Virus record (IMG/VR): IMGVR_UViG_3300021963_006848
Location: 33,039-97,038 of that record
Length of the DNA stretch: 64,000 nt
Source of the DNA: a virus
Direction: 5' to 3' (one strand)
Under the pieces are notes generated by a model. It made no database searches, had not been told where the DNA came from, and worked only from the letters and a program-made list of their open reading frames with translations. Shown piece by piece: positions 31,384-61,175 of this stretch. Position 1 is the stretch's first letter, and every line of letters begins with the position of its first letter. A program made the position numbers and the translations under genes.

Positions 31384-31500
31384 CTAAAAATTCTTATAAA
31401 TAAAAGGGTCTCTTTTTTTTAATTCTTCTATTTTCTTCTTAAACTCTCTTTTCTTTTTCCAGTTTTTGAAAAGTTTCTTTATAGTATCTAAAAATTTCAT
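31384..31500 (-). CDS. 38-aa basic peptide coupled to the carbamoyltransferase (DPFIY motif)
   Basis: MKFLDTIKKLFKNWKKKREFKKKIEELKKRDPFIYKNF; ATGA overlap with the upstream stop. Confidence 0.65.
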   Translation of the reverse strand: MKFLDTIKKLFKNWKKKREFKKKIEELKKRDPFIYKNF

Positions 31501-38502: not shown

Positions 38503-39855
38503 TTATAATGCAAATCTACTACCTATGGTAAAGTTATAGGAAGGATTTTGATTGAATCCGGTATCTCCAATAACTAATGCACCAAAGTTTACTTTGAATC
38601 TTCTGGAAAGGTTAAAATCAAAGTTACTTCCTAGAATATAGTTATAAGTTTCTACTCCTATTACTGTTTTTGAATCAACCATATAAAGGGATCCTAAATT
38701 CGACCAGGCAAACATAGGAGATATGGTAACTCTCTTAGTTACAAACGGTTTAGTAACAAATGCTGTGGCAATTTGTGCAATGCTGGTATTATCTTTTACA
38801 AAAGTACCTGCAAAAGTTAATGCATAACCGCCTACTATTCCTTTTGGCCCCATTAAAATTAAACTATTCGTTACGTTAGGGCTAAAAACTCCAAACATAC
38901 TTGCTGCTGATACACTACTTGAGAGTATCATTACCGGTTTGTAATCTTGATCTAAGAATATCTTAGAGTAGTTAAGAGATAAGTTAAATTGCTGAAGATT
39001 ATCCCATAACATAAAAGTAGCTCCGTAAGATTCTAAACCAGTTAGACTACTTTTTGACACTCCCATTGTCATCATATTAGTGAATTTACCGTCTGGTGTT
39101 AATCCAGAAGCTATATTTGCACTAACAATAGGAGGATTTATTGGTCTCTTTTTTTCTTCTTTCTTTTCTTCTTTTTTCTCCTCTTTCTTTTCTTCTTTTG
39201 ATTCTTCCTTCTTTTCTTCTTTTTTCTCTTCTGATTTTGACTCTTCTTTTTTCTCTTCGCTCTTAGATTCAGTTTTCTTTTCTTCAGTTTTACTTTCTGT
39301 TTTAGATTCAGTTTTAGTTTCAGTTTTAGTTTCAGTTTTAGTCTCCGATGAAGAATTGTTGTTATTACCAGATGATGAACTACTAGATGAAGAAGATCCT
39401 CCGCTTGCTGGTGGAGGTGTAGAAGACCCACTACTTGATGCTGGAGGTGTTACTGGTGGAGGTGGTGGAGGTGGAGGTATAGTAGCAGCGGCTGTAGCAG
39501 CAGCATTTGATGCAGAAGCGGCTGCTTGAGAAGCAGTACTAGCTGCTTGCGTTACTGTATTCTGTATAACTTGTGTTACTACAGTACTGGTTGGGCAAGG
39601 TCTATTTTGTACCTCTAGTATTGTTTTGTTTATCCAAGATTGTGCAACTCCTTGCTGTACTTCTTGTGCTGTAAAAGTCCTTACTTGATCATAAAAAGCT
39701 ACAATAGCACTACCACTAACATAAGTAGTAGTCACTGTTTTAACCTGACCTGAACATTTATCTATATACGTTTGTACTACAACCTGACCATTAGCGGCTT
39801 TGGTTGCTAGTAAAACTATAACTAATATCGTAAACTTGGTTATCCATTTTCTCAT
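38503..39855 (-). CDS. exported protein with Pro/Ser/EK low-complexity linker and beta-barrel-like C-terminus
   Basis: Signal ANG/Q; PPPP, SSSS, ETK and EEKK runs; alternating hydrophobic strands ending YNFTIGSRFAL. Confidence 0.65.
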   Translation of the reverse strand: MRKWITKFTILVIVLLATKAANGQVVVQTYIDKCSGQVKTVTTTYVSGSAIVAFYDQVRTFTAQEVQQGVAQSWINKTILEVQNRPCPTSTVVTQVIQNTVTQAASTASQAAASASNAAATAAATIPPPPPPPPVTPPASSSGSSTPPPASGGSSSSSSSSSGNNNNSSSETKTETKTETKTESKTESKTEEKKTESKSEEKKEESKSEEKKEEKKEESKEEKKEEKKEEKKEEKKRPINPPIVSANIASGLTPDGKFTNMMTMGVSKSSLTGLESYGATFMLWDNLQQFNLSLNYSKIFLDQDYKPVMILSSSVSAASMFGVFSPNVTNSLILMGPKGIVGGYALTFAGTFVKDNTSIAQIATAFVTKPFVTKRVTISPMFAWSNLGSLYMVDSKTVIGVETYNYILGSNFDFNLSRRFKVNFGALVIGDTGFNQNPSYNFTIGSRFAL

Positions 39856-42007: not shown

Positions 42008-42349
42008 TTATTTAATTATTATTGTTGTTTTACTTATCTCTTTTTTAGTAACATCTTCTAGTAACAAATATAAATACGTAGACTGTATTGAGTTCGTGTA
42101 AATCTTCTTAACATTTTCCCCAAGCTGTCCTATAAATTTCTCTCTACTGATTACTTGACCGCTTTCTTTATCGACTAGTGTTAATGTATACGTTCCAGCA
42201 GATGGTAAATCAAAGTAAATTGATTGTCCGTTTACTACTCTACTTTCACCAACACTAAATATCTTTTCAACAGGTGGAGTTGGAGTTGGTAATTCTGGTT
42301 TAGTACATCCTACTAATAAAATCAACGATATGTAAAGTATGTATTTCAT
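42008..42349 (-). CDS. lipoprotein with Ig-like domain, probable paralog of its neighbour
   Basis: LVGC lipobox; YTLTL.D...GQVISRE...G.N..KIYT. Confidence 0.65.
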   Translation of the reverse strand: MKYILYISLILLVGCTKPELPTPTPPVEKIFSVGESRVVNGQSIYFDLPSAGTYTLTLVDKESGQVISREKFIGQLGENVKKIYTNSIQSTYLYLLLEDVTKKEISKTTIIIK

Positions 42350-44649
42350 TAGTTTAACTTAATTTTTAACTGCTTACCGTCTTTATTTACTGCATCAGTA
42401 TTTGAAACTGAGGTTAGTCCTAATATCCCATTTAATCCAATTAATGGTAAAAATGTAATTTTATATTCAGTCGTCTTATCTAATACAGTAGATCCATCTG
42501 TTATTAATGAACCTAATGTCACATAAGTACCTCTATCGGTACCGAAGTTTGTTGGGTTGCCTTTTGTATTAAACTCTACTTTTTCAAATTTTAAAGCAGT
42601 GTTGTCGTAGTTTATATTAAACTGCGTTCCAACTAACTCTTGCTGCAATGGGTCTACTGATAATGTTACAACTAACTTACCGCCTATATTTTCACCTATT
42701 AGGTACGCGTTGATTTGATTAGAAACAGTATTTACTGCTAAGCTCATACTCTTTACTGAGTTGTTCGCTATAGTACCTACGCTTTGCTGTGCTGAATGTG
42801 ATAAGTTTACATCACCTAACCAAGTTACGCTTATGTTATAGGTGTTGTTAAGGTTCCCTAACGTAAAAGGTATTAAATTACGGGTAGAGTTAAATTGAGT
42901 TCCCCAATTTGATACTGTTATCGCATCATATTCTGACTTATTGTATAACTTCATCAGATAAGTTAGTGCAGTAGATTGAGACAACGGCTGTACGCCTGTA
43001 AGATGTTGTAATAACTTATAGGTATCTGCTTCATTGAATACCCCGTTTCCGTCAACATCTGCGTTTAAGTATTGAATACCGTTTGTTAAACCTAATCCAC
43101 TTTGATTTCCAAACAATCCACCATCAGCTAATTCTTTGAATGCTAAATAAACATCTGATACACCAACTATGTTACTATATAATGTATTTAGTTCTGTTTG
43201 ATTAGAATGGGTTAATTCCATTCCATGTGGTTTATATGTTAATATAGATGAAAAAGCAAATTCAGCCTGTAATCCATAAAATCCATTTCCTGCTCTTATG
43301 TTTGATGCAAAAGATGAACCACTAAAATTGAATTGAGTTGCAGTATAAACATACACCTCTGTCCAACCATTAGGGTCATATGAATTAAACGTTACTGGTC
43401 CATTCCATAAATCAAATAATTGTAAACTACTAATTTTAGTGGGGTCTGATACTATACCATTTACTTCTCTGCTATCAATTCCAATTCTATATCGCTGGTT
43501 AGTTACATCATATTGATAAATTACACACCACTCAACTTGTCCAGAGGTTGTAGTTGCTCTAACACCACCATTTGATACTCTTACGGTATCCAATAAACTC
43601 GTCAAATCAACTTTACCCAAACCACTTAATTGTCTAGCAGTTCCGTTTACTATATTCCAAGTATTATTTGTATATGTATATCCTCTAGCTGTGAATTTTG
43701 TTTCATCCACATTACCACCAAAATCAACATTGAATGATGCTCTCAATACTTCTCCGTTTGAATGGGTTACACTATTGGTATAGAATTCAGTAAATGTTGC
43801 ATCATCAGGATTAGTCCAAGTTCCAAATTCAACAACATAAGCACAACTGAAATTATTAGGTAAATCATTCCATTGAGAACCACCACCCCATTTAGTTACT
43901 GCGTAATCTTCGTTACCACTATTGTTTGGTTCACCACCTGCCCAGTTATTATATTGTCCTTGTATGTTTCCGTTAAGTTGTCCGTTTGCTGTTTTGATTA
44001 AAGTTCCGGCTTCGGGTCCAGCATCGATTCTCCATTGTCCCTCAGCTACTTCATCGGTTAATGCAAACCATATATTAGCTTGTGGAACATTATTAAAAAT
44101 AAATTGGTCTTCTGATGAAGATGTTATTGTTACTAAATATCCTTGTTGACCTTTGAATGTTTGTTGAGCAGATAATGTTCTTGCATTTGTATAAGTTGCT
44201 CCGGTTGATATTGGTCTATAAAAATGGCCGTTCACACCATTATAAAAATAACCAACAGGATTTACAGTTGCTGCTACTGATAATTGAACATTACCAACTA
44301 CTGAACCTGTGTTTACTTTTAGATTTGCTAATGCTATATTGATATTAGCCATTGTACCTGTTACCACTAAACGAGTTTTATTACCAGGTAAGGTAAACCC
44401 ACTTGCCGGTGTTAATCCATCTAATCTATCTAAGTAGAATGTAGTTCCAGCTGATGGATTAATTAAACTGATTGAAGCAAGTAGTGTTGAAGTTGAATTA
44501 AATCCACTCAATACAAATCCACTTCCATCTTGTGCATTTGTAGATGGAGTAAAGGATTTAGAGTCTGGAGCAGATACACTCTGTCCAACCCCCAAAAATG
44601 GTGTCAATAATAACAGTAATATAACTAATAAGTTTTTCATACTATTCAA
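42349..44649 (-). CDS. exported protein with C-type lectin, dockerin-like and cohesin-like domains
   Basis: Signal GVG/Q; NGHFY, GYLVTITS..E, EG.W, W..GEPNN, WNDL; DVDGNG.FN.AD; QFNINYD...L. Confidence 0.75.
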   Translation of the reverse strand: MNSMKNLLVILLLLLTPFLGVGQSVSAPDSKSFTPSTNAQDGSGFVLSGFNSTSTLLASISLINPSAGTTFYLDRLDGLTPASGFTLPGNKTRLVVTGTMANINIALANLKVNTGSVVGNVQLSVAATVNPVGYFYNGVNGHFYRPISTGATYTNARTLSAQQTFKGQQGYLVTITSSSEDQFIFNNVPQANIWFALTDEVAEGQWRIDAGPEAGTLIKTANGQLNGNIQGQYNNWAGGEPNNSGNEDYAVTKWGGGSQWNDLPNNFSCAYVVEFGTWTNPDDATFTEFYTNSVTHSNGEVLRASFNVDFGGNVDETKFTARGYTYTNNTWNIVNGTARQLSGLGKVDLTSLLDTVRVSNGGVRATTTSGQVEWCVIYQYDVTNQRYRIGIDSREVNGIVSDPTKISSLQLFDLWNGPVTFNSYDPNGWTEVYVYTATQFNFSGSSFASNIRAGNGFYGLQAEFAFSSILTYKPHGMELTHSNQTELNTLYSNIVGVSDVYLAFKELADGGLFGNQSGLGLTNGIQYLNADVDGNGVFNEADTYKLLQHLTGVQPLSQSTALTYLMKLYNKSEYDAITVSNWGTQFNSTRNLIPFTLGNLNNTYNISVTWLGDVNLSHSAQQSVGTIANNSVKSMSLAVNTVSNQINAYLIGENIGGKLVVTLSVDPLQQELVGTQFNINYDNTALKFEKVEFNTKGNPTNFGTDRGTYVTLGSLITDGSTVLDKTTEYKITFLPLIGLNGILGLTSVSNTDAVNKDGKQLKIKLN

Positions 44650-46873: not shown

Positions 46874-47617
46874 TTATGAGTAGCAAACTACACCGTATTG
46901 TGTATAGTAGGAACAACCACCATACGTGGTTACACTGCCTATACGAGCACATACTGTTGTATTATTGAATGGGCCTAAGAAAATTTGAGTAGTAGATCCA
47001 AAACAAGGTGTATACTGTACCCATCCTCCGCAAGATCCTCCGTTTAGTTGATATAGAGAACAACCTAAAGTGGGGGCAGGATAGCTTGCTGGCGGTGCAA
47101 CAGGTGATGGTGTTGGGCTAGGAGTAACTGGGCTAGGAGTTACAGGAGCAGCTGTTGGTGCAGCTGTTGGTGACGGAGTAACTGGTGCGGCAGTAGGAGC
47201 TGCTGTTGGTGAAGCTGTAGGACTAGCTGTTGGTGAAGCTGTCGGGCTAGGAGTAACTGGGCTAGGAGTAGGAGATTCTGATGGTGGTGCAGTAGGAGCA
47301 GGAGTAACTGGTGCAGGAGTTACTGGAGCTGGTGTTACCGGTGCAGCAGTTGGTGCTGCAGTTGGTGCTGCTGTAGGAGCAGGTGTAGGTACTATAGAAT
47401 ACACAAATAAATCTTCTGTACTACATTTACCTGTACTTTTAACATATAACACGTGGTACAGAGTATCTACATCTATATAATACCCGTCTACTAACTGCTG
47501 TCTTGTTACTCCAGTTGCAATTCTATTAGGGGCTGATATAGCTGTATGATATACATCAAAAGGTCCTACTGTAGATCCTGCTGTTGTAATCTGTATTTTA
47601 AGTGTTCTTGTTGCCAT
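46874..47617 (-). CDS. Pro/Thr/Ala-repeat protein with Cys-rich C-terminus, putative virion protein
   Basis: N-terminal GPF.VYHT domain, [15 protein letters not shown] repeats, no signal peptide. Confidence 0.75.
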
Positions 47618-47624
47618 TTAACTA

Positions 47625-48398
47625 CTATTGAATAGCTTCTATTTGACCTGATCCTGGAGCTGGTGTTTCACCTCCATAACCTATAGTTGGTGCGAATCCG
47701 CCTCCTCCTCCGCCTCCACCTCCGGTAGGTGCTGGTGCAGTTGGTGCAGGGGTTGTTGGTTCAGGTGTAACTGGACTAGGTGTTACAGGAGATGTATATG
47801 TTGTAGGTGCTGGAGTAACAGGGCTAGGTGTTACTGGTGAAGCAGTTGGTGCTGTATAAGTAGGAGATATAGTTGGTGGTGCTGCTGGCGCTGTTGTTGG
47901 TTCCGGAGTTACCGGAGCAGGAGTTACTGGTGAAGGAGTTACAGGAGCAGGAGTTACAGGAGCAGGAGTTACTGGTGAAGGAGTAACAGGAGCTGGAGTA
48001 ACTGGTGCTGCTGTTGGTTCCGGAGTTACTGGTGCTGGAGTAACTGGTGCTGGAGTAACTGGACTAGGTGTAGTTGGAGCTGCTGTTGGAGCCGCTGTAG
48101 GACTAGGTGTAGGAGCGGCAGTTGGACTTGGAGTCGGAGCTGCTGTAGGTGCAGCTGTTGGTGCTCCTGTTGGTACAGTTAAATTAGCTACTCCTGTATT
48201 ACCACATACACCATTACTAACTACATAGAAGTCGTTTGTACCATCTGGTACAGTTATATTAAATGGAGTAGTCATCTGGGTTCTTGTAAGTCCAGAGATT
48301 ACTAGATTAGACGGATTATTTGGATCAGTATGATAGAGTGAAAACGGACCTGCGTCTGTTCCTATCGATGTTCCTGTTATAGTTACTGTTATTGGCAT
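47625..48398 (-). CDS. Pro/Thr/Ala-repeat protein with paralogous N-terminal domain
   Basis: GPFSLYHT...G.TR.Q...YV.S.G.C, ~150 aa of repeats, poly-Gly. Confidence 0.75.
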   Translation of the reverse strand: MPITVTITGTSIGTDAGPFSLYHTDPNNPSNLVISGLTRTQMTTPFNITVPDGTNDFYVVSNGVCGNTGVANLTVPTGAPTAAPTAAPTPSPTAAPTPSPTAAPTAAPTTPSPVTPAPVTPAPVTPEPTAAPVTPAPVTPSPVTPAPVTPAPVTPSPVTPAPVTPEPTTAPAAPPTISPTYTAPTASPVTPSPVTPAPTTYTSPVTPSPVTPEPTTPAPTAPAPTGGGGGGGGGFAPTIGYGGETPAPGSGQIEAIQ

Positions 48399-51335: not shown

Positions 51336-52307
51336 TTAAGACTCTATTTTACTTGCTATCCATTTATAAGTTTCAGTTAAACCTATATGTAGAGGTTGAG
51401 ATGGTGCCCAACCTAACTTCTCTTTAATCAAAGTGTTGTCTGATGTTCTACCCCTCACTCCTTGTGGACCTGGTATGTTCTTAATTTCAATATTCTTATT
51501 TGCTAGACTAGCTACTAACTTAGCTAACCCGTTCATTGAGATAATCTCTTCTGATCCTATATTGATAGGTTCTTTATAGTCCGAATTCATCAATCGTCGA
51601 ACACCTTCTACAGCTTCATCTATATAAAGGAACGAGCGGGTTTGTAAACCATCACCCCACACTTCGATTTGACCATTTGTAGGAGTTTTAGCAACTTTAC
51701 GACATATTGCTGCTGGTGCTTTCTCTTTTCCTCCGTCAAATGTACCTTCTGGTCCAAATATATTATGGAAGCGAGCGATTCGTATATCTATACCGTAATT
51801 TCGGTTATAAGTTGCGTATAAACGTTCAGAAAATAGCTTTTCCCATCCATACTCTGAATCAGGTTGTGCTGGATAAACTGAATCTTCTTTACAGTTCGGA
51901 TTTTCAGGGTCTAACTGGTTATGCTCGTTATAAACACAAGCAGATGATGCATAGAATATCTTTCTAACGTTTTTCTTTTGTGCTTCGTTTAAAACGTTCA
52001 GATTTATTAACATAGAGTTGTGAACTACATCTGCATCATGATCTCCGGTGTTAATATAGCCTGCTCCTCCCATATCTGCTGCTAATTGGTAAACCTCATC
52101 AAAGGGTTCTTGGAAAGGTGCGTACATTATAACCGATGTCTTCAAAGGATCTCGCAAATCAGCAATAACAAAGTCATCTGCTGTTGAATCTGAGAAGTCT
52201 GGGTATTTAATATCTACTCCTCTCACCCAGTATCCTTCTGATTTTAATCTTGTAACTAAATGTGAACCGATAAAACCACCGGCACCTAATACTAATGCTG
52301 TTTTCAT
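51336..52307 (-). CDS. GDP-mannose 3,5-epimerase-like SDR
   Basis: GAGGFIG, LAADMGG.G, SSACVY, YGWEK, RFHNIFGP.G...GGKEKAPAA.CRK, WGDG.QTRSF. Confidence 0.88.
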   Translation of the reverse strand: MKTALVLGAGGFIGSHLVTRLKSEGYWVRGVDIKYPDFSDSTADDFVIADLRDPLKTSVIMYAPFQEPFDEVYQLAADMGGAGYINTGDHDADVVHNSMLINLNVLNEAQKKNVRKIFYASSACVYNEHNQLDPENPNCKEDSVYPAQPDSEYGWEKLFSERLYATYNRNYGIDIRIARFHNIFGPEGTFDGGKEKAPAAICRKVAKTPTNGQIEVWGDGLQTRSFLYIDEAVEGVRRLMNSDYKEPINIGSEEIISMNGLAKLVASLANKNIEIKNIPGPQGVRGRTSDNTLIKEKLGWAPSQPLHIGLTETYKWIASKIES

Positions 52308-52311
52308 TTTA

Positions 52312-53874
52312 TTATTTTTTAATATAGTAATCTTCTAATACTAATCCGTCCATTTGTGTGTTGTTCAACATCCAAACTGCATCTTTGTAGCTGTTTAGTA
52401 TTGGCTTACCTCCTATGTTAAAGGAAGTATTCAACAACACACCTACACCTGTTCTTTCATGTACTAAAGTTAATAAGTTGTAAAGGAATGGATTCTGTTC
52501 TTTAGTAACTGTCTGTACTCTAGCTGTTCCATCTACGTGGGTAACAGCTTTCAAGACATCTCTGTATTCTTCTCTAACTTTAGGACAAAAGGACATCCAT
52601 CTAGACTCCTGATTGAATTCAAAAAACTTGTTTACATCCTCTAATCTAACCACTGGTGCGAAAGGTCTGTAGTATTCTCTATTTTTTACCTTAGCATTCA
52701 AAGTATCTTTCATACCCGGTAGGCAAGGATTACATAAGATACTTCTGTTACCTAACGCTCGTGGTCCTACTTCTGATCTACCTCTAACTACTCCTATTAT
52801 TCTACCTTTTATAATCTCATCTGCTAAAGCTTCAGTAACTTTTTCTGCTTTATAGCTTTGTACGTAGTCTTGAAGTTGAAACTTATCCCAAGCTTCCGGA
52901 CCTGCGTATGTTGCATCAAAGGCTTCTTTAGGTTTAAGAAAATCTAACATGAATCCTAATGAAAGCCCACAGTCACTTGGATTTGGTGGTATAAAAGTCT
53001 TTGTTATGTTGTTTAATTTTGTATTATTCAGAATATTTAAACCACATCCTCCAGCGATTGCTAAATTATTATTAGCTTTTGCTATATCATCTTTACTTAC
53101 TTCGAAAAAAATATCTTCAAAAACTTTTTGAGAAGTGGCTGCTATATCTAGCTCTAGTTGACCACTAAGTTCATCTGGGAATCCTAGAGCTTCTTTCATT
53201 TTATTATAATTAAACTCTCTTAATTCCCTAGTACCGTGGTGTCCTGTATAAAACTCTCTCATAACAGTAATAAATTCTTCTCGAATATTTCCATATCCAC
53301 ATAATCCCATCAACTTACCTGCATAAACTAGGTAAGCTTTAACCCAATCTTCACGTTTAATAGAAGAACAATAATGTCCTATTTCAGCATACTTTTCTCC
53401 GATATTATAATCGTAATTCATCCAAGAAAATTTAACTCCTTCTTCTCTAGTAGCTGTATAAAAATTAAAACATCCATCGTTTCCTCCGCCGTCGTAGGTA
53501 ATTATTACAGCCTCCTGTAGGTCTGATTGGTAAAAAGCTCCGGAAGCATGACCAAACTGGTGAAATACTTCTACTAATTTCTTAGCATTAAAAAAAGATA
53601 AAAACTTACTTTCACTTCCTAAGTAGTTTATATAGGTACGGGTATCTTCTTGATTGCAGATTAAATGTTCGTATTCTTCTGCTCCGTACTTATCTTTAAA
53701 ATACTTTAGAATATCTTTTATTACATTGAAAGGTTCGTGAGCAGGTAAATACCAGATTAAACCTCCGTTTTTGATATTAGTGTAACGTTCTACTTCTAAT
53801 ACTTCTAATATCTTCCCATCTTTAGCTAAAGTAAGAGAAGCGTTATGTCCTGAATATAGTGCTAAATTATACAT
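52312..53874 (-). CDS. O-carbamoyltransferase, NodU/CmcH family
   Basis: HNAS, HQFGH, DGGG, GKLMGL.GYG, E.GPRALGNRS, RPFAP, LNTSFN. Confidence 0.92.
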   Translation of the reverse strand: MYNLALYSGHNASLTLAKDGKILEVLEVERYTNIKNGGLIWYLPAHEPFNVIKDILKYFKDKYGAEEYEHLICNQEDTRTYINYLGSESKFLSFFNAKKLVEVFHQFGHASGAFYQSDLQEAVIITYDGGGNDGCFNFYTATREEGVKFSWMNYDYNIGEKYAEIGHYCSSIKREDWVKAYLVYAGKLMGLCGYGNIREEFITVMREFYTGHHGTRELREFNYNKMKEALGFPDELSGQLELDIAATSQKVFEDIFFEVSKDDIAKANNNLAIAGGCGLNILNNTKLNNITKTFIPPNPSDCGLSLGFMLDFLKPKEAFDATYAGPEAWDKFQLQDYVQSYKAEKVTEALADEIIKGRIIGVVRGRSEVGPRALGNRSILCNPCLPGMKDTLNAKVKNREYYRPFAPVVRLEDVNKFFEFNQESRWMSFCPKVREEYRDVLKAVTHVDGTARVQTVTKEQNPFLYNLLTLVHERTGVGVLLNTSFNIGGKPILNSYKDAVWMLNNTQMDGLVLEDYYIKK

Positions 53875-54793
53875 TAACTAGTTTTTTATTTATAAAATCA
53901 ATACCTGCATAATCTGCGTATTGTTGTAATGTTCTCTGTGTTCCTAATCCATACTTACCTAAATCTCCTCCTTCTATTAACATCCTAAGCCTTTCTATTG
54001 CAGCTCTATGTCTTGTATGTGCCTCGATGCTAGGTGCTGTATTGTAGTGTTTTTTAGGTACTGCATTATGTGTTCTATGCCATGCAACTATTTGCGAAGG
54101 TGTATATAAGTCGTAACCGTGAGTATAAGATCTAATAGCTAAAGCAAACTCTTCCCCAGTATAGTAGTGTTCTGGATCTTGCTCAACCTTGACTACCCAT
54201 TCACCGTCTGTAAATATAAAACCTCCATATAATAAGATAATACTTTTTGGCTGAAATCCAATGTTTATTTCATTTTCATATCCCCCATAGTTAGGCCAGT
54301 ATTCTGCTGTTAAGCTTGCAATCTTAGGAATGTTCATTCTATCTAAATTATTAAAATGTCGATATGAATGATCTACTCCAGTTTCATCATCTCTATGATA
54401 AGGAGGTGGTAAGAAGGATAGTAATGGTTTTATTCCTGTAGAAGCTAGAGCTTCATAATCTTTTATAAGAATCTCATCCCAATCTTGTATAAACCGAGTA
54501 TGTGAATCTACCTGTAAACTATATTTCTCTCCATTATAGTTAGTCTGTGCAATCTGTCTCGCCCAACATCCACCTTTTGATTCTTCATAAGGAAATTTTA
54601 TAACTTTTAAATTATAAAAATCTACAAGATCGTCTATACAACTCTTTCCTGTTTTAACTTTATCGTCGTATTGGAGGCACACTGAGAAGTATAAGTTTTC
54701 AGGATACTTAGCAGTCCTTATACAGTCTAAGATTGTAAAACGTATTTCATAATCTAAGTAACTAGCAATAGATATAAAAATTGTATTTTTCAT
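53867..54793 (-). CDS. GT60-like (Skp1 hydroxyproline / polypeptide GlcNAc-transferase-like) glycosyltransferase
   Basis: TIFISIASY.D, G.CWAR, LQVDSHTRF..DWD, GGFIF, GEE...R.YTHGYD, YGLG.QRTL..Y. Confidence 0.85.
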   Translation of the reverse strand: MKNTIFISIASYLDYEIRFTILDCIRTAKYPENLYFSVCLQYDDKVKTGKSCIDDLVDFYNLKVIKFPYEESKGGCWARQIAQTNYNGEKYSLQVDSHTRFIQDWDEILIKDYEALASTGIKPLLSFLPPPYHRDDETGVDHSYRHFNNLDRMNIPKIASLTAEYWPNYGGYENEINIGFQPKSIILLYGGFIFTDGEWVVKVEQDPEHYYTGEEFALAIRSYTHGYDLYTPSQIVAWHRTHNAVPKKHYNTAPSIEAHTRHRAAIERLRMLIEGGDLGKYGLGTQRTLQQYADYAGIDFINKKLVNV

Positions 54794-54795
54794 GT

Positions 54796-55620
54796 TTAAT
54801 TTTTATATAGTTCTGTAAAAAATATTCCCCATTCCCCTACCCTGTTATATTGGTGTACTATGCAAAAAATATCTCTAGTCTTCTTATTTATAATTTTATC
54901 AGATTCTTTGATCGGTACCCCGTACTTATATGCGTTTGCAAATCCCCATTCGTAAAATACATTACTTGGACCTGCTACTCCGCAGTGGACAGCTAACCCG
55001 CTATCACTATTAACTATTTGAATACGATCTGTTAAAAAAGTAGAAAGTAGTGCTACATTTAATGCAGGCTGATCGGCACTTTGAAAATTTTGCTTTCTCG
55101 TAGCAACATACATATGTAGTAGGATATTAGTGATGGGGTGGGGTCTACCGAAGATAATTCCTGAGTTAATTATTTCTCTATTGTATAACTCTTGGGAAAA
55201 CTCAGTATGGTCTGTTTCTATAGCTCTCTTATTCCAAGGTTCATCTTTATGTTCAATACCTTCTGAGGTAAGTATTATATCTTTTGTTGCATTTTTTAAA
55301 AACCATTCGAAAGGATCTCTTTGAAAAACTACATCTACCGTATCTGTTAAAAGAACTATATCTTCCTGTGTTAAGTTCTTCAAGAATTCTCTAGCTTTGA
55401 AATGTCTTTCCCACTTACATATATTAGTGTCTGCTTCGTCTTTAGTAGGGCAATGTACTAACTTTACCCCTAGTTTTTCTAGTTCTGATATACTCCCAGG
55501 AATTTCTTGATCTAATACTAAAAGTACTATTTGACAATTGCAATACTTTAAAGCACTTTGTATCCAACCATTAATCCTTAGTTTATTACAATGTTTAATA
55601 GATCCTATCAAGTAGTTCAT
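54796..55620 (-). CDS. GT-A glycosyltransferase (DV.FQ.DPF / HQY.R type, PLOD-GT-like)
   Basis: LLTDTVDVVFQRDPF, NSGIIFG, DQ..LN, IVHQYNR. Confidence 0.7.
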   Translation of the reverse strand: MNYLIGSIKHCNKLRINGWIQSALKYCNCQIVLLVLDQEIPGSISELEKLGVKLVHCPTKDEADTNICKWERHFKAREFLKNLTQEDIVLLTDTVDVVFQRDPFEWFLKNATKDIILTSEGIEHKDEPWNKRAIETDHTEFSQELYNREIINSGIIFGRPHPITNILLHMYVATRKQNFQSADQPALNVALLSTFLTDRIQIVNSDSGLAVHCGVAGPSNVFYEWGFANAYKYGVPIKESDKIINKKTRDIFCIVHQYNRVGEWGIFFTELYKN

Positions 55621-55621
55621 G

Positions 55622-57166
55622 CTATAGTTTTTTAATATAATAGTCTTCTAATAAAAGAGCATCCATTTGTTTATTATCTAAAACCCAAAGTGCATCTTCA
55701 TACGTATTCAGAATTGGTTTTCCTGCTATATTAAAAGATGTATTTAAAATTACTCCTATACCTTTTTGGTTGTGCATTTCAGTCAGTAAGTCGTATAGAA
55801 ATTCATTTTGTTTTCTTGTGACCGTCTGTACTCTAGCAGTTCCGTCAACATGAGTAATAGCTTTTAAAATATCTTTATATTCGTCTTTAACTTCAGGACA
55901 AAAAGACATCCATCTTGATTCTTTATCCCAGTTAAAGTACTTATTTACATCTTCTAATCTAACTACTGGTGCGAAAGGTCTATAGTATTCCCGTCCTTTC
56001 ACTTTAGCATTTAGTGTATCTTTCATCTCTCCAATAGTTGGATCACATATGATACTCCTATTTCCTAAAGCTCTTGGACCGTGCTCTGATCTATCTCTAA
56101 CTACACCAACTATTTCTCCTTTTATTAATTTCTGAACTAGTTCTGCTATTTCAATTTTAGTACCTTTTCTCTCATAAAGTAATTTAGGAAGTAACTTTCT
56201 ATCCCAAACTTCCGGACCTAGGTAAGTTGTATCTACCGGTATGTGTGGTCTCATTTTGCTACAAACTAACCCTACTGCTAATCCTGTATCGTTTGGATTA
56301 GGAGTTACAAAAGTCTCTCTCTTCAGAGCTAGTTTAGTGTTTAGTAGTATATTTAACCCACATCCTCCGGTAATAATAAGCGGTAAGTCGTTATGGAGTT
56401 CTAAGATATTTCTTGTTTCTTCTTCAAATAACTGCTCAAAGACATACTGATTAGTTGCAGCTAAGTTCTTTGCATAGTTACCTTCATATCGTATCTGTTC
56501 CGACTCTATGTTGAATATCTTCATAAAGCGAGTTAATGCTTCACTTATATTATCTGTTGTATTAGAAGCATAGAATTCTCGAAAAGGTTGTACTAAGGAA
56601 TCATCTACTTTTCCAAAACCAGCTAATCCCATTAATTTTCCAGCATATACTAGATTACCTGTGTAAATCCATTCTTGTTTTATATCTGAGATGAAGTGAG
56701 CAGGCATCATATAAGAAACAGCGTAGTCTTTTTTACCCACGTATATCTTCTCTATAGGAGTTTCACTTCTTTTATCTCCTAAGTAAATGTTAAAGAAACC
56801 TTCATCACTTCCTCCATCAAAAGAAATAATTAAAGCTTTCTCAAAGTTTGATTGGTATAATCCGGAATATGCATGAGCTTCGTGATGAGGTAACCACTGG
56901 TAATTACCGGCTGGGAATATCTTCCACATCTCTTTATCTACCGAGTTATATACTACATTATCGTATTTTTCTACTCCGTATTTTGTCTTAAAATAGTCTT
57001 TAATTTCTGTAAGTAGTTCAACTATATTCTCATGATGTCCCCAATAAAAGAAAGCAGCATTTTTTACATTTATTAATCGCTCTAACTCTACTACTTCTAA
57101 AACTTCTCCTTTGTAGGAAATAGCTAAGCTAGCATTATGCGACCCAAAAAAACCTAAATTAAACAT
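55622..57166 (-). CDS. O-carbamoyltransferase, NodU/CmcH family, paralog of 52312-53874
   Basis: HNAS, HHEAH, DGG, GKLMGLAG.G, GPRALGNRS, RPFAP, LNTSFN. Confidence 0.92.
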   Translation of the reverse strand: MFNLGFFGSHNASLAISYKGEVLEVVELERLINVKNAAFFYWGHHENIVELLTEIKDYFKTKYGVEKYDNVVYNSVDKEMWKIFPAGNYQWLPHHEAHAYSGLYQSNFEKALIISFDGGSDEGFFNIYLGDKRSETPIEKIYVGKKDYAVSYMMPAHFISDIKQEWIYTGNLVYAGKLMGLAGFGKVDDSLVQPFREFYASNTTDNISEALTRFMKIFNIESEQIRYEGNYAKNLAATNQYVFEQLFEEETRNILELHNDLPLIITGGCGLNILLNTKLALKRETFVTPNPNDTGLAVGLVCSKMRPHIPVDTTYLGPEVWDRKLLPKLLYERKGTKIEIAELVQKLIKGEIVGVVRDRSEHGPRALGNRSIICDPTIGEMKDTLNAKVKGREYYRPFAPVVRLEDVNKYFNWDKESRWMSFCPEVKDEYKDILKAITHVDGTARVQTVTRKQNEFLYDLLTEMHNQKGIGVILNTSFNIAGKPILNTYEDALWVLDNKQMDALLLEDYYIKKL

Positions 57167-57167
57167 A

Positions 57168-59921
57168 TTACCTTTTTAACTTTATATTAAAATAACTTTC
57201 TAAATCTTCTACCGTTCTAACATGTGTTTGTTTCAACAGAAAATCATTTACTAATTCTCGTGCATAGTCTTCTATATAGTACTTACCGTTGTGTTCTCTA
57301 TAAGGTTTATCAGTTGCTGCTACCTTAAAGTTATAATTATGCCATACTGTAGCTAAAGATGTTACTTTTAAATTCCACCCTTTCAAATAACTTAAAAAAG
57401 TTTGAAAGTCTTCTTCTCCATTAAACCTAATGTTATCAGGTAATCTTACTTCTTCTATCCACTGTCTTCTAGTAAATATGAATCCTGCTGCTGCCCATCG
57501 AGTATCAACTACTTCGTAATCATTCAAGGTAGGTAGGTTTTCAGCTATACATCTATTATCATCCGGACTTGTTTCTAGTAAAAATTTCCTAATACGTAAA
57601 GGTGTATTATTAGGTTTATTTAAGTACTCCTTTTCGTAATCTGGAACGTCGAAATGATTAGGATAGGTTGTTAGTATTACTTTGTCTTGCTCAATACTGT
57701 TATACTGGTTTATTAGTATTGCATCCCAGGCTTGTCTAAATCTACTATGTGAATCTACTTGAAGAAAGTAATCTTCGTTTCTCACAAGCTCATTCTTTAT
57801 TCTATTTCTTGCATATACAACCCCTTTAGCTTGCTCTTTAGGTGTGAAAATAATTCTCAAATTTGGAAAGTTATACTCTTTTAATTTAGCATAAGCTTCT
57901 TCTGTGTCTTGTATATTTACTCCTACAAAAACTCTACTAGGGTCAATAGCTTCTTCATATAAACTTTTTAAAGTATCTATAAGTTGAGAATCGCAGTAAC
58001 TTGCTATTGATACGAATATGTTACCATTTCCAAAACTCCAACTATCGTTATACTCTCTAAACCAGTTACCTTTAAAATGACATTCTGCAATAAATGGTAT
58101 TTGATGTCCTAGGTTAAATTTTTCAGTATTAATATAGTAATTTTTATCCTCAATGTCAGACATATACCCTCTCATTCTATAGATGTAAGAAGATAGTGTT
58201 GAATGACTATTACCTATAAACTTAATACTACGAGTACATATGAACTGCTCAATAATAGGAATCCAGTTATTATCAAATTCATTATAGATACTAACTTGAT
58301 TCTTTAAATCTTCATAGAAAGAAACTCGATAAAGACCCATGAGAGGTCTAAAAAATTCTTTATCCCTGTGGTCTGTTGCAATGTAAAGCTTACTTCCCTG
58401 AGGGATTATGTCTTTTATATTCTCTAAAATTTGCTCACAGCTAATAAATAATTCCTTATATTGGAAGTCATTTCTACGAATATGAATAGAGTAGTAATCT
58501 CTATCTCCTAACTTATTAATAAACTGCCAAGCTAAATCAAAAATATCTGTACGATATCTTACATGCTTAGCGATAAGTTTTTTGATCTCTACATCTAAAC
58601 TTGTAAATAAAGTCTGGTGAGTAACACCTAGAAGATTAGATTCAAGAAAAATAAATTCTTCATCTGTAAAGTATTCTTCACTTCTTAATACTGGGCGGTG
58701 TTTATGAAACTTAACAGGTGGGTTAATTTTTTCAAAATTCATGACGTGTAAAACTGCATCATAATCTAATACTTTGCATATACTTTTTACACTGTCGTAA
58801 TTATGTTCTAGTTCTTTTTCTTCACAGAACTTACTGAACGGTATAGAAATTACTCCTAAATCTGAAGTATCAAAAAAGGATTCCATACTAGAGTTCCCTT
58901 CTAGTAAGTACATTTTATATTCTGGTGTCAGAACAAGTTTTCGATTAGTTAAATATGCTATACATACTGCTAACTCTAACGACATTCTTATATTGTTGAA
59001 ACCACCAGGCCAAGGTCTAAATAAAATATAACCTTTGCTGCCATCGTAAAATTTAAAGATGCTAGAAAAATCCCACTTATTATAGTATATGTAATCTGTT
59101 CTATACTGATCTACGCTCGTAACCATCTTATTACTTACTTCGCTTATTATATTTGATAAATCGTATTTTTGTGTTTGATCAAAGGTATGATCTTGCTTAA
59201 AGAACAATTTGTTTCCTTGCTTATCTAAAATTACATTAGGGTAGTGTATTATACTTCCTATTGTGGACCTACCGGTATCGTTCCATGCAGTACAGGTTCC
59301 AATATCCTCAACTAAATCAACTTTTATATTAGAATCTTTAATTGCATAGTCCAATCCCCACATTTCTGCTTCCCATCTTCCTTCTTTCTTTCTGATCTGC
59401 TCACAATACTCTGTATATTTTTTGTAAAATTTCTTTAGAGTATTAAACTTCAAAGCAAATGGGTACATTATCCCTTGTGCATTATGAATATCTTTTTCTC
59501 GATCTTCCCATCCGTTTAGTGGAACAAAGTGAATAAACTTTTGACCGATAATATGATTGTCTTCTAATTCAAAATCAACTGCTTTAGTAAACAGCATATC
59601 TGGGTCCAGGAATAATAACTTATCATTATCTTGGAAGTAGTTATTTTCGCATAACCATTCTACAGATTTATATTTGTTAGGGATACCACCCCACCAGTCA
59701 TCGTTAGCTGTTTGCCAATTGTGAGCATAGTCTGGTTGATCTATTACTATAGCGTCAGATAAAAAACTAAAATCTGGATTTTCATGTCTGTGTCCGTAAT
59801 CTCCAGAGAGTAGTATAACTAACTTACCTTTTTGACCTACCTTCTTTAAAGACCAGTGTAATAGTTTTAACTGCCATGCTTGATACTCACATCTACTAGT
59901 TCCGACAACAATATAGTCCAT
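57168..59921 (-). CDS. three-domain glycosyltransferase: HPAT/SGT1-like, O-fucosyltransferase-like and GT60-like
   Basis: N: Y..WQ...L..S..K.GQ.G....LLS, NK...V.WL, LDPDM, W.AEM.G; middle: GGFNNIRMSLE, H.RR.DF, YIATD, EQ.IC, FIG...ST.S; C: IFVSIASY.D, QVDSHSRF, AAGF.F, GEE. Confidence 0.82.
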   Translation of the reverse strand: MDYIVVGTSRCEYQAWQLKLLHWSLKKVGQKGKLVILLSGDYGHRHENPDFSFLSDAIVIDQPDYAHNWQTANDDWWGGIPNKYKSVEWLCENNYFQDNDKLLFLDPDMLFTKAVDFELEDNHIIGQKFIHFVPLNGWEDREKDIHNAQGIMYPFALKFNTLKKFYKKYTEYCEQIRKKEGRWEAEMWGLDYAIKDSNIKVDLVEDIGTCTAWNDTGRSTIGSIIHYPNVILDKQGNKLFFKQDHTFDQTQKYDLSNIISEVSNKMVTSVDQYRTDYIYYNKWDFSSIFKFYDGSKGYILFRPWPGGFNNIRMSLELAVCIAYLTNRKLVLTPEYKMYLLEGNSSMESFFDTSDLGVISIPFSKFCEEKELEHNYDSVKSICKVLDYDAVLHVMNFEKINPPVKFHKHRPVLRSEEYFTDEEFIFLESNLLGVTHQTLFTSLDVEIKKLIAKHVRYRTDIFDLAWQFINKLGDRDYYSIHIRRNDFQYKELFISCEQILENIKDIIPQGSKLYIATDHRDKEFFRPLMGLYRVSFYEDLKNQVSIYNEFDNNWIPIIEQFICTRSIKFIGNSHSTLSSYIYRMRGYMSDIEDKNYYINTEKFNLGHQIPFIAECHFKGNWFREYNDSWSFGNGNIFVSIASYCDSQLIDTLKSLYEEAIDPSRVFVGVNIQDTEEAYAKLKEYNFPNLRIIFTPKEQAKGVVYARNRIKNELVRNEDYFLQVDSHSRFRQAWDAILINQYNSIEQDKVILTTYPNHFDVPDYEKEYLNKPNNTPLRIRKFLLETSPDDNRCIAENLPTLNDYEVVDTRWAAAGFIFTRRQWIEEVRLPDNIRFNGEEDFQTFLSYLKGWNLKVTSLATVWHNYNFKVAATDKPYREHNGKYYIEDYARELVNDFLLKQTHVRTVEDLESYFNIKLKR

Positions 59922-61175
59922 TTATTGAGGTACAAATTTATAATCTGCTAATGTATAATGTAAAAAGAAATTTCTAAAGAATTCTCCTTCAAAAGGTTCA
60001 ATACGTCCATGTTTATTAGTAGCAGATTCATATAGAATCATTTCCCCTGGTTCTGCATAAACTTTATGCCATCTACCTAAATGGTCTTGAATATCTAATG
60101 GCCAATCTCTATCTACCTGCTTATCTACTATTACTATAGATGATATGTGGTGAGTTACTAAAGTATCTGTATGTGGTTCTAGTATAGCCCCTCTTTTATA
60201 AGATCTGATACCGTAAATCCATTTCGGTACTAAACGTTCTTTATTACCTATAAACTCTTCGTGGATAGGTTGTAACTCTTCTGCAATAATCTCTCTAATA
60301 CGGGTAAAAGCATCCATACTAAAGATTTCTACCGGTGCATTTCCTTGATTATCGTGTATAAAATCAGTAATACCGTTCCAATGTTCTGCTCGTACTGTAG
60401 GTTTCAGTAAGTTGTATGCTTCTGTAATCAACTGGAAGGTCTTTTCAGGTACTTTTACAACTTTAAATCCTAGTTCAGAAAGCTTTGGTAAATCTTCTTT
60501 CTTTGAAAATACTTTTTGTACTGGTTGCTGTGGTTGTGTCATTTCTTGATATTCTTTTGCAAGTCTAGCATCTTCAGCACTATTGAATACATTTTCTCTA
60601 AACCATTTTGTAATAATTACTTTTCTACCTTTTCTTACAGGTAAACCTGCATGTAAAGCGGCTGAGTTTTCAGTTCCTGTACCGTTAGAGTTTTTCCAAA
60701 CTACTGCAGTACCTTTTACTGGTGTGAATGTCTTTTGTAAGGTAGGAAAATCTGTTTCACCTCCTTCTTCAACATCATTAAGGTATATCATAAACGTCCA
60801 TGTTCTTTGGCCGCTAGATAAACAATGGTTATGGTATGCTTCTTTACCAAAAGCATCTTGGTGGTGTCTAAATTCTTGACCTACCTCATATATTTGACCT
60901 TGTGTTGGTTCTGAATAAGGAGCTTCTATTCCTAGTTCTATATACATTTTTTGATTAACATTACTGATAATCGGATCTGTATCATGTAAAACTGCTGTAG
61001 AACTAGTACGGCCTTCATCGTATTTTATAGATTGGGTTCCACTGCCTGCTACGCTTGATCGAACACTTCCGTGTTCTGTTAGTCTTACAATATGATCACA
61101 TTCTTCGTTCGTTAAGAACTGAGGGATTGTGAATATTTCCAATCCATGGCTGTTTTCTATATATACTCTTTCCAT
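59922..61175 (-). CDS. prolyl 4-hydroxylase fused to a second 2OG-Fe(II) dioxygenase domain
   Basis: FLT.EEC, RTS, Y..GQ.F..HQD, QR..T.MIYLNDVEEGGET.FP, HAGLPV..G.K...TKW; second domain HTD...HGR...R. Confidence 0.88.
   Translation of the reverse strand: MERVYIENSHGLEIFTIPQFLTNEECDHIVRLTEHGSVRSSVAGSGTQSIKYDEGRTSSTAVLHDTDPIISNVNQKMYIELGIEAPYSEPTQGQIYEVGQEFRHHQDAFGKEAYHNHCLSSGQRTWTFMIYLNDVEEGGETDFPTLQKTFTPVKGTAVVWKNSNGTGTENSAALHAGLPVRKGRKVIITKWFRENVFNSAEDARLAKEYQEMTQPQQPVQKVFSKKEDLPKLSELGFKVVKVPEKTFQLITEAYNLLKPTVRAEHWNGITDFIHDNQGNAPVEIFSMDAFTRIREIIAEELQPIHEEFIGNKERLVPKWIYGIRSYKRGAILEPHTDTLVTHHISSIVIVDKQVDRDWPLDIQDHLGRWHKVYAEPGEMILYESATNKHGRIEPFEGEFFRNFFLHYTLADYKFVPQ

Follow-up and report, generated by a model that had tools for sequence, protein, structure and literature searches.

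The fusion gene and its setting

The DNA analysed here is a stretch of 64,000 nucleotides (nt; hereafter the window) from the IMG/VR virus record IMGVR_UViG_3300021963_006848, positions 33,039 to 97,038, which forms the final 64 kb of a 97-kb viral contig with an estimated completeness of ~54%. The genes of the contig lie nearly all on the minus strand with minimal spacers and include those for a DNA polymerase, GroEL, ribonucleotide reductase (RNR) and further glycosyltransferases (GTs), and the source is a large tailed phage with a genome of roughly 180 kb. In this paper, we describe a gene of the window, P0001 (57168..59921, stop codon included, minus strand, as are all the other features of the window given below), which encodes a predicted trifunctional GT of 917 amino acids (aa), together with the genes around it, and we evaluate whether its product could be a soluble, hydroxyproline (Hyp)-dependent protein O-glycosylation machine.

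According to the list of open reading frames (ORFs) and its translation, P0001 starts with ATG and is a single uninterrupted frame without internal stops. Its product matches 171 clusters over the whole protein at E ≤ 0.001, and because of these matches, and because the same domain set is found in many of the retrieved proteins, the three-domain architecture is judged to be neither a chance combination nor an assembly artefact. Invariant catalytic-type motifs are present in all three domains among 26 full-length homologues (46-93% identity). A blastn search of a phage collection with the P0001 gene gave no match, and tblastn of the same collection gave single-domain matches only; NCBIfam returned no match for the fusion, for its partner hydroxylase P0003 or for the 875-aa repeat protein P0002 (see below). 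The nearest matches in cellular assemblies, at ~50% identity, are on Saprospiraceae/Bacteroidota contigs of metagenome-assembled genomes (MAGs) and single-amplified genomes (SAGs), which suggests a Bacteroidota host.

A preliminary description of this DNA had proposed a fusion of three protein-O-glycosyltransferase types with boundaries at residues 1-270, 295-600 and 635-917. The single ORF and the matches of each domain in Pfam, phrog or hhalign comparisons confirm the fusion; the proposed boundaries are correct to ~20 residues, and all three family assignments hold, including that of the N-terminal domain, which was the least obvious.

The N-terminal HPAT/SGT1-type domain

Residues 1-252 (59166..59921) were assigned to the GT-A domains of the HPAT/SGT1 (GT95/GT96, PF23452) superfamily by hhalign, profile searches and AlphaFold2 (AF2) modelling. 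A profile built from the window sequence and five close relatives retrieved 117 representatives when 1.8 billion proteins were searched exhaustively; 65 of the 92 hits of at least 200 aa are PF23452 members, with a best E-value of 1.8e-40. One hit comes from Coleochaete scutata, a streptophyte alga; relatives of this protein carry the names peptidyl serine alpha-galactosyltransferase or HPAT-like. When 41 phage and metagenomic N-domains, with the window sequence first, were compared with 16 plant and green-algal sequences, hhalign gave a probability of 99.9% and an E-value of 4.3e-33 over 241 columns (query residues 2-252). All signature motifs align in this comparison, the plant YxxWQ, NKP, LDADM, WxSEMYGY and HYG corresponding to YQAWQ, NKY, LDPDM, WEAEMWGL and HYP in the phage family. 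The DxD-type metal/nucleotide-sugar motif D106-P107-D108 (within LFLDPDM; 59598..59606), which aligns with the plant ILDADM motif, is invariant in 41 diverse relatives, and D106 and D108 are also invariant in the 26 full-length homologues. Moreover, full-length orthologues of P0001 (46-74% identity) score 25.5-29.8 bits against PF23452 and so exceed its gathering score of 23.9, and two other relatives reach 37.1 (P0178) and 41.6 bits (P0139). Sequence comparison thus confirms the domain as a member of the HPAT/SGT1 superfamily; the preliminary description had considered that it might match an unrelated GT-A family, and the family found is that of the plant and algal enzymes.

The AF2 model of this domain (mean predicted local distance difference test score, pLDDT, 88.5) has a GT-A topology. 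The top Foldseek matches are retaining GT-A enzymes (GT6, GT8, LARGE1 and XXYLT1) with a template modelling (TM) score of only ~0.5, and no HPAT or SGT1 structure is among the matches, so that the search with the modelled fold neither supports nor refutes the assignment made from the sequence. The domain starts at Met1 with strand beta-1 and has no membrane anchor (maximum Kyte-Doolittle hydropathy over 19 residues 1.14), thus departing from the type II membrane anchor of the HPAT/SGT1 superfamily. It is followed by a linker with a helical extension (residues 253-297; 59031..59165), for which AF2 predicts a helix at 261-282 and a lower pLDDT at the end.

The O-FucT-type and GT60 domains

Residues 298-587 (58161..59030) form an O-fucosyltransferase (O-FucT)-type GT-B domain, which matches PF10250 over profile positions 1-326 of 326 (E 1.9e-24, 87.3 bits vs a cutoff of 31.5) and carries the motifs GGFNNIRMS (306-314), HIRRNDF (480-486) and STLSS (574-578). 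The only solved relatives of P0001 found by sequence are the POFUT2 structures 4ap5 and 4ap6 (E 7.8e-5). In the alignment with 4ap6 over residues 469-587, HIRRNDF and STLSS correspond to HLRRKDF and STFS, which bind GDP-fucose, and R482, N484, D485, S574, T575 and S577 are invariant in the 26 homologues.

The C-terminal domain (residues 633-917; 57171..58025) is a GT-A domain of family GT60 (PF11397 'GlcNAc'). Its best stretch in Pfam is 682-898 (E 6.6e-39, 134.8 bits vs a cutoff of 21), and a match to phrog_24687 over residues 634-866 extends the domain to residue 634. GT60 enzymes use a DxH motif, which is found here as D723-S-H725 within QVDSHSRF; D723 and H725 are invariant in the 26 homologues, as is a further pair, I635...D644. 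The preliminary description had regarded all three GT types as known mainly from eukaryotes. This holds for the HPAT/SGT1 type; for the other two, phage and bacterial members exist already, as seen from phrog_24687 and the NCBI name 'GlcNAc-transferase family protein' for GT60, and from the O-FucT of the cyanophage S-SCSM1.

The partner double hydroxylase

Directly upstream of the fusion lies P0003 (59922..61175), which encodes a double 2-oxoglutarate (2OG)/Fe(II) oxygenase of 417 aa, as assigned from matches to solved structures, AF2 and Foldseek. Its stop codon abuts the ATG of the fusion (TAAATG) with no spacer. Residues 16-197 match solved prolyl 4-hydroxylases (P4Hs) from Bacillus anthracis, human (C-P4H), the chlorovirus PBCV-1 and Chlamydomonas (E 3e-24 to 2e-16), the best match being that of B. 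anthracis at E 3e-24, and by this homology the N-terminal half is a P4H of the collagen/plant type. The C-terminal half (59925-60560) has no match in Pfam. It contains an H-x-D...H...R pattern that is invariant across 21 homologues, and its AF2 model (pLDDT 92.6) has a 2OG oxygenase fold, for which the top Foldseek matches are prolyl hydroxylases of the PHD type, Dictyostelium PhyA (6t8m) being first, followed by the Pseudomonas putida P4H and human PHD2 (TM 0.55-0.6), with ectoine hydroxylase nearly equal in score. The model thus identifies this half as a second 2OG oxygenase with a PHD/PhyA-like fold. Such a domain is fused to a collagen-type P4H in nearly every related locus.

The rest of the predicted glycosylation cluster

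Downstream of the fusion, spacers of -8 to 4 nt separate the genes through that of an epimerase. The first one encodes a carbamoyltransferase of the NodU/CmcH type (55622..57166; Pfam PF16861 and PF02543), followed by a small GT-A glycosyltransferase with a match to PF03407 Nucleotid_trans (54796..55620; 35.7 bits vs a cutoff of 22), which we take to be the Pfam family that holds GT77-type enzymes. We also considered whether this GT77-like gene corresponds to the PLOD-type GT domain of longer fusions (see below), and rejected this possibility when BLASTP revealed no similarity. The next gene encodes a standalone second GT60 of 308 aa (53867..54793; Pfam E 2.1e-47), which is 61% identical (E 2e-133) to residues 919-1221 of a longer fusion, P0028, and on this similarity is considered the orthologue of domain four in the fusions of 1200 aa. 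A second carbamoyltransferase (52312..53874; Pfam) and a GDP-mannose 3,5-epimerase (GME; 51336..52307; E 1.9e-97 to the Arabidopsis GME 2c59) complete the enzyme block. The GME is likely the donor supplier for the O-FucT-type domain, and its presence agrees with the use of GDP-L-sugars by the O-FucT fold.

The enzyme block showed no gene for a lipid carrier, a flippase or a polymerase. None of the cluster proteins has a hydrophobic segment of membrane-anchor grade, and for this reason the machinery is predicted to be soluble and cytoplasmic. A search for promoter and terminator consensus sequences between 46 and 64 kb was not informative, shuffled sequences containing more promoter-like sites, and the reading of the cluster as an operon is based on gene spacing alone; by this spacing, the fusion is probably co-transcribed and co-translated with the double hydroxylase.

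The window also encodes a third, Nol-like carbamoyltransferase (31497-33176; phrog_1601, E 1e-114) and two more GTs (9620-12344; phrog_2170), and the investment of the phage in glycan chemistry reaches well beyond the fusion cluster.

Candidate substrates

The gene of P0002 (48671..51298), a candidate substrate of 875 aa recognised by its translation and composition, starts 37 nt past the epimerase gene. P0002 has a globular N-terminal part of ~200 aa, followed by long (A/S/T)-P-(T/V/A/S) repeats that are broken by small Cys modules; it contains 20% proline and 15.5% threonine, and just one PP dipeptide. By the same criteria two adjacent ORFs encode further candidates, P0242 (257 aa; 47625..48398), with a small N-domain and the same repeats, and P0243 (247 aa; 46874..47617), with a small N-domain, repeats and a Cys-rich C-terminus. 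Proline makes up 17-24% of the three proteins and is almost never contiguous, on account of which their repeats are likened to arabinogalactan protein (AGP) or mucin linkers rather than to Ser-Hyp4 extensins. The preliminary description had assumed a single repeat substrate; there are instead three adjacent candidates and a fourth proline- and threonine-rich (PT-rich) ORF further downstream. The 97-kb contig has four PT-rich ORFs among its 238, all of them downstream of the cluster.

The fourth (38503-39855; 450 aa) lies ~9 kb downstream of the three repeat proteins and may be a further substrate. Between them, a 766-aa ORF (42349-44649) has a match to C-type lectin that exceeds the Pfam cutoff (E 1.6e-5) and a weak one to cohesin; a gene for a carbohydrate-binding protein just downstream of a glycoprotein cluster is worth noting.

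Recurrence across loci and domain shuffling

When viral contigs were scanned with a fusion profile, 55 loci were recovered. The double hydroxylase lies immediately upstream of the fusion in 44 of these, with a gap of 3-7 nt in most and up to 69 nt in four, and the adjacency persists where the HPAT domain is only 28-36% identical. The GME, the carbamoyltransferases and the second GT60 also co-occur widely in the related viral loci. The arrangement is found in cellular genomes as well: the double hydroxylase, again directly upstream of the fusion, is present on Saprospiraceae/Bacteroidota MAG contigs and on the complete 4.3-Mb chromosome of a gammaproteobacterium, Ca. Azotimanducaceae, and a 712-kb Paraglaciecola scaffold carries the fusion with a weaker P4H-like gene ~5 kb downstream. 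Each of the two gammaproteobacterial loci has, in addition, an ORF with PT repeats and a second GT60, joined at the Paraglaciecola locus by a GME.

The domains of the fusion occur in several combinations. The retrieved proteins comprise 64 with the order HPAT-OFucT-GT60, 40 more in which a second GT60, the counterpart of the standalone one of the window, is added as the fourth domain, 16 with OFucT-GT60 and two with HPAT-GT60; in addition, P0178 unites HPAT, GT60 and P4H in one chain of 1190 aa, and P0036 fuses the triple GT to a carbamoyltransferase. Such domain shuffling among relatives supports a single pathway for these activities.

To evaluate the association with repeat proteins, PT-rich ORFs were counted with a fixed criterion in fusion-centred loci of at least 12 kb and in control loci of the same phage lineage, centred on DNA polymerase and totalling 1.2 Mb. 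Eighteen of the 42 fusion-centred loci contain such an ORF vs none of the 67 controls (Fisher p = 2e-9, a value that overstates independence, as the compared loci are mutually related and the counts are not independent events). Very divergent loci also encode repeat proteins of the same xPT/TPS type.

Several other observations were made on the related loci. On the Azotimanducaceae chromosome (L062; OZ255839, 3800864-3823524) the module lies inside a larger island with a 1319-aa GT92/GT2/GT25/GT10 multi-domain enzyme, an MBOAT protein, two sulfotransferase-domain proteins and a second GT10, and with no obvious phage genes. Its PT-repeat ORF (405 aa, stop to stop) has an N-terminal 'RR..LKKIL' that resembles a twin-arginine leader, which would suit the export of a protein modified in the cytoplasm. 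Longer fusions (P0055, P0158, P0189 and others) add a PLOD-type GT (PF25342), GT2, DUF5672 or PqqD-like domains; PF25342 is the collagen Gal-Hyl glucosyltransferase family, and hence another collagen-modification family on the same scaffold. Three IMG/VR contigs labelled GVMAG (L046, L056 and L057) carry distant copies of the fusion, with 22-30% identity in the HPAT domain, so that either the module occurs in giant viruses too or these are misassigned phage contigs. P0009 (293 aa, on an 8.8-kb metagenomic contig) has an HPAT-like domain, which according to the alignment used is ~43-48% identical to that of the window, and a C-terminal stretch with a precomputed hit to the EF-P C-terminal domain PF09285; it could represent a chimera of gene calling or assembly, or else a genuine fusion with an OB domain like those of translation factors.

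Proposed mechanism and alternative explanations

Directly established here are the domain families, the conserved motifs, the gene adjacency, the co-occurrence and the natural fusions, from which we infer the residues that accept sugars, the donors, the sequence of the steps and the destination of the product. On this basis we consider it fairly probable that the fusion is a soluble, Hyp-dependent O-glycosylation machine for the phage's own repeat proteins. In the proposed mechanism, the hydroxylase would form Hyp from the prolines that stand singly within the (A/S/T)-P-(T/V/A/S) repeats of the three phage proteins. The HPAT/SGT1-like domain, the GT60 domain or both would then initiate glycans on the peptide, at Hyp or at Ser/Thr: Hyp-directed members exist in both families (PMC8012813, PMC6939170), GT60 includes a Thr-directed member, the Trypanosoma cruzi pp-GlcNAcT (PMC6939170), and SGT1 is Ser-directed (PMC8012813). 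The O-FucT-type domain would add a GDP-activated L-sugar, most likely L-galactose or L-gulose from the GME of the cluster, to the first sugar or to Ser/Thr, the standalone second GT60 and the GT77-like enzyme would lengthen the glycans, and the two carbamoyltransferases would cap sugar hydroxyls. The products would be mucin/AGP-like proteins with dense glycosylation, probably displayed on the virion or on the infected cell.

Two lines of evidence for this interpretation come from the gene context. The P4H is genetically coupled to the transferase, as seen in the TAAATG junction, in the 44 of 55 viral loci, in the cellular loci and in the fusion P0178, and a proline-rich acceptor candidate travels with the enzymes, as seen in the enrichment of PT-rich ORFs and in the distant loci. 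Together they support the general idea of the preliminary description, namely a peptide-directed, Hyp-linked O-glycosylation of repeats.

Several observations weigh against it. The window's own N-domain (N-terminal 290 residues) has no match in Pfam, PF23452 being absent even at E ≤ 10, so that its assignment depends on the orthologues and on profile-profile comparison and not on its own Pfam score; the named eukaryotic relatives retrieved are SGT1-like only, look-ups of the clusters of mid-length hits yielded no names, and the assignment stands at the level of the GT95/GT96 superfamily. The catalytic base of POFUT2, Glu54 (PPEGFNLRR), aligns with G306 of the query (PGGFNNIR), in a weak N-terminal segment of the alignment; G306 is nearly invariant (at least 90%) and the neighbouring G307 invariant in the 26 homologues. 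Because the Glu54 position is a conserved Gly, the middle domain is best described as a member of PF10250 that is not an orthodox POFUT2, and PF10250 is not exclusively protein-directed, since it includes glycan-acting enzymes. No gene for UDP-arabinofuranose supply was seen. As to the repeat proteins, their N-terminal parts have no match in Pfam, and a search of the ESM Atlas with residues 1-200 of P0002 gave no usable match. Finally, about 10 of the 55 viral loci have no P4H within reach, and the relatedness of the compared loci tempers the enrichment of PT-rich ORFs.

The same enzymes could act differently on the same substrates, the three GT domains being independent initiators on different peptide hydroxyls, with the HPAT-like domain on Hyp, the O-FucT-like domain on Ser/Thr and the GT60 domain on Thr or Hyp; three kinds of single-sugar or short decorations would then be expected side by side. 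Every family does have peptide-directed founders, i.e. HPAT and SGT1 (PMC8012813), Gnt1 and the T. cruzi pp-GlcNAcT (PMC6939170), and POFUT2. Pro, Thr and Ser are available in each repeat unit, and the two prolyl-hydroxylase-like domains of the partner could feed two Hyp-directed transferases. However, the catalytic Glu of POFUT2 is not conserved, and the POFUTs act on folded Cys-knot modules rather than on linkers. The variable added GT domains (second GT60, PLOD-type GT, GT2 and DUF5672), the GME and the carbamoyltransferases look like chain building, and both precedent pathways, those of plants and of Skp1, consist of one initiator followed by elongators. Parallel initiation therefore appears unlikely, and the loss of the POFUT2 Glu, the extra GT domains acquired to varying extents by relatives and the sugar-tailoring enzymes of the cluster favour a stepwise building of glycans by initiation and elongation, which we rate as the more probable of the two models.

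Other explanations place the target elsewhere. The chief one among them, that the cluster modifies the host surface or a polysaccharide (lipopolysaccharide, capsule or cell-wall glycan), the repeat proteins being unrelated structural genes, would agree with the action of Nod/Nol-type carbamoyltransferases on glycans and with the simpler island of the cyanophage S-SCSM1, published as cell-wall modification (PMC9602691). We find this quite improbable. The block lacks genes for an initiating phosphoglycosyltransferase, a flippase or a polymerase, and its proteins lack membrane segments; the surroundings are specifically enriched in PT-repeat proteins; and in two of the three domain families the characterised enzymes have peptide acceptors. 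Polysaccharide synthesis, moreover, offers no function for a prolyl hydroxylase, whose gene here shows the tightest linkage of all and in one relative is fused to the GTs. Host proteins, such as proline-rich envelope proteins or translation factors, might instead be modified for host takeover, given that the enzymes are predicted to be cytoplasmic, that EF-Tu is a substrate of a bacterial P4H of the PHD type (the fold hits include 4iw3), and that, besides the loci without a nearby P4H, many have no PT protein within the fetched flank. The repeat protein, however, lies beside the enzymes in phages as well as in the two gammaproteobacterial genomes, at ~31-43% identity, and its travelling with them argues for a dedicated substrate, which makes host proteins a very improbable target. 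Phages often combine oxygenases with GTs for DNA hypermodification, and two relatives have sub-threshold hits to PF20691 (TET-associated glycosyltransferase) in the GT60 region (E 2e-4 and 2.5e-3), which would fit a TET/JBP-style hydroxylation and glycosylation of DNA bases. Against this, the oxygenase matches prolyl 4-hydroxylases, at 3e-24, and not TET/JBP, and the GT60 match in Pfam is 30 orders of magnitude above that to the TET-associated family, so that DNA is hardly credible as the acceptor. The modification of the phage's own repeat proteins remains the explanation that we prefer.

Comparison with known systems

In the pathway of plants and green algae leading to hydroxyproline-rich glycoproteins (HRGPs), a P4H acts first, followed by HPAT1-3 (GT95) on Hyp and SGT1 (GT96) on Ser, and then by RRA/XEG113 (GT77) (PMC8012813, PMC4738400). 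The phage cluster resembles it in having a collagen/plant-type P4H beside an HPAT/SGT1-superfamily GT-A domain with aligned signature motifs, a PF03407 (GT77-type) enzyme, and candidate substrates with Pro/Ser/Thr/Ala repeats. On the other hand, in plants the enzymes are individual type II membrane proteins of the Golgi (PMC8012813), whereas the phage domain begins at Met1, is predicted to be soluble and forms one chain with two other GTs; the plant substrates are of the Ser-Hyp4 type, whereas the phage prolines are non-contiguous and AGP-like; and the UDP-arabinofuranose supply of the plant pathway has no counterpart seen in the phage. HPATs have been described as plant-specific (PMC4738400), while the carrier here is a phage or a bacterium.

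The Skp1 pathway of Dictyostelium and Toxoplasma comprises the cytoplasmic hydroxylase PhyA, the GT60 enzyme Gnt1 acting on Hyp, the bifunctional PgtA and further GTs (PMC6939170, PMC3515798). Shared features are the cytoplasmic, soluble enzymes (in the phage as predicted from the genes), the prolyl hydroxylase preceding a GT60, which in Skp1 places an alpha-GlcNAc on Hyp, and a multi-domain GT, that of Skp1 performing consecutive steps that include an L-fucose-type addition. Moreover, PhyA of Dictyostelium is the closest structural match of the partner's second oxygenase domain. The pathway of Skp1 differs in that a single proline of a folded regulatory protein receives a single glycan, compared with hundreds of candidate sites in repeat tracts here, and it has no counterpart of the HPAT-like and O-FucT-fold domains, the GME and the carbamoyltransferases of the phage. 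By analogy, the presence of one hydroxylase domain and one transferase of each type, plant and Skp1, is suggestive of a pairing.

POFUT2 (GT68) and POFUT1 (GT65) share with the middle domain the PF10250 GT-B fold and the GDP-sugar-binding motifs HxRR.DF and S-T-x-S. They differ in the catalytic base, where Glu54 of POFUT2 stands against the near-invariant Gly of the phage domain, in the donor, which is GDP-fucose for the POFUTs and likely GDP-L-galactose or GDP-L-gulose from the cluster GME for the phage, and in the acceptor domains, namely thrombospondin repeats (TSRs) and epidermal growth factor (EGF) modules: neither was recognised in the phage neighbourhood, and Pfam detected no TSR, the acceptor type of POFUT2, in the neighbouring proteins.

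Viruses are known to modify, or have been proposed to modify, their own proteins with their own enzymes. Mycobacteriophage virions are described as O-glycosylated by phage GTs (Freeman 2023, as cited in PMC12582341), and the P4H of the chlorovirus PBCV-1 as acting on viral proline-rich repeats (Eriksson 1999, as cited in PMC7019647). A simpler and experimentally tractable analogue is the island of the cultured cyanomyovirus Synechococcus phage S-SCSM1 (L065; MK867354, 94780-111790) mentioned above, in which a standalone O-FucT lies between two 2OG oxygenases, together with a carbamoyltransferase, a GDP-mannose dehydratase (GMD), a GDP-fucose synthase and a GME; like the phage cluster, it is located downstream of the RNR genes (nrdA/nrdB). 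A P4H together with domains of the HPAT-type, GT60 and O-FucT families is found in none of these named virus precedents, nor does any of them contain a three-domain fusion.

The serine-rich-repeat (SRR) adhesins of Gram-positive bacteria are O-glycosylated in the cytoplasm by GtfA/B and multi-domain GTs such as dGT1. In that system, as proposed here, clustered and partly multi-domain GTs glycosylate a long low-complexity repeat protein before export; the SRR system differs in its GT families, in the absence of prolyl hydroxylation and in its accessory Sec export.

Implications

A literature search found no paper describing a phage or bacterial HPAT-type enzyme, this fusion, or a P4H-GT module in phages, and the known viral precedents for parts of Hyp-linked glycosylation are partial. 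The kind of system is already known, and what would be new is Hyp-linked protein O-glycosylation in a phage or bacterial setting and in a fused, soluble form. A broader and more doubtful proposal is that phages and some bacteria possess, complete and in soluble form, an equivalent of the Hyp-glycoprotein machinery of eukaryotes, in which a collagen/plant-type P4H with an HPAT/SGT1-type GT and a PHD/PhyA-type hydroxylase with a GT60 would work as pairs on one repeat protein, and that the GT95/GT96 and Skp1 enzymes share ancestry with these genes of viruses and bacteria or were exchanged with them.

Hyp-linked glycosylation has been regarded as a eukaryotic trait, belonging to plant cell walls and to Skp1 of protists. 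If our interpretation is true, Hyp-dependent protein O-glycosylation occurs in phages and bacteria too, and the evolutionary origin of GT95/GT96 would be reopened as a question. For structural work, the system would provide GT95/96 and GT60 with their first tractable members in soluble form, and its self-contained, membrane-free set of a hydroxylase, a three-in-one transferase, an epimerase and carbamoyltransferases could be used in E. coli for the production of Hyp-glycosylated or mucin-like repeat proteins. For large aquatic phages, it offers the hypothesis that they coat their fibres or other exposed proteins with such glycans, which may have consequences for adsorption, protease resistance and grazing.

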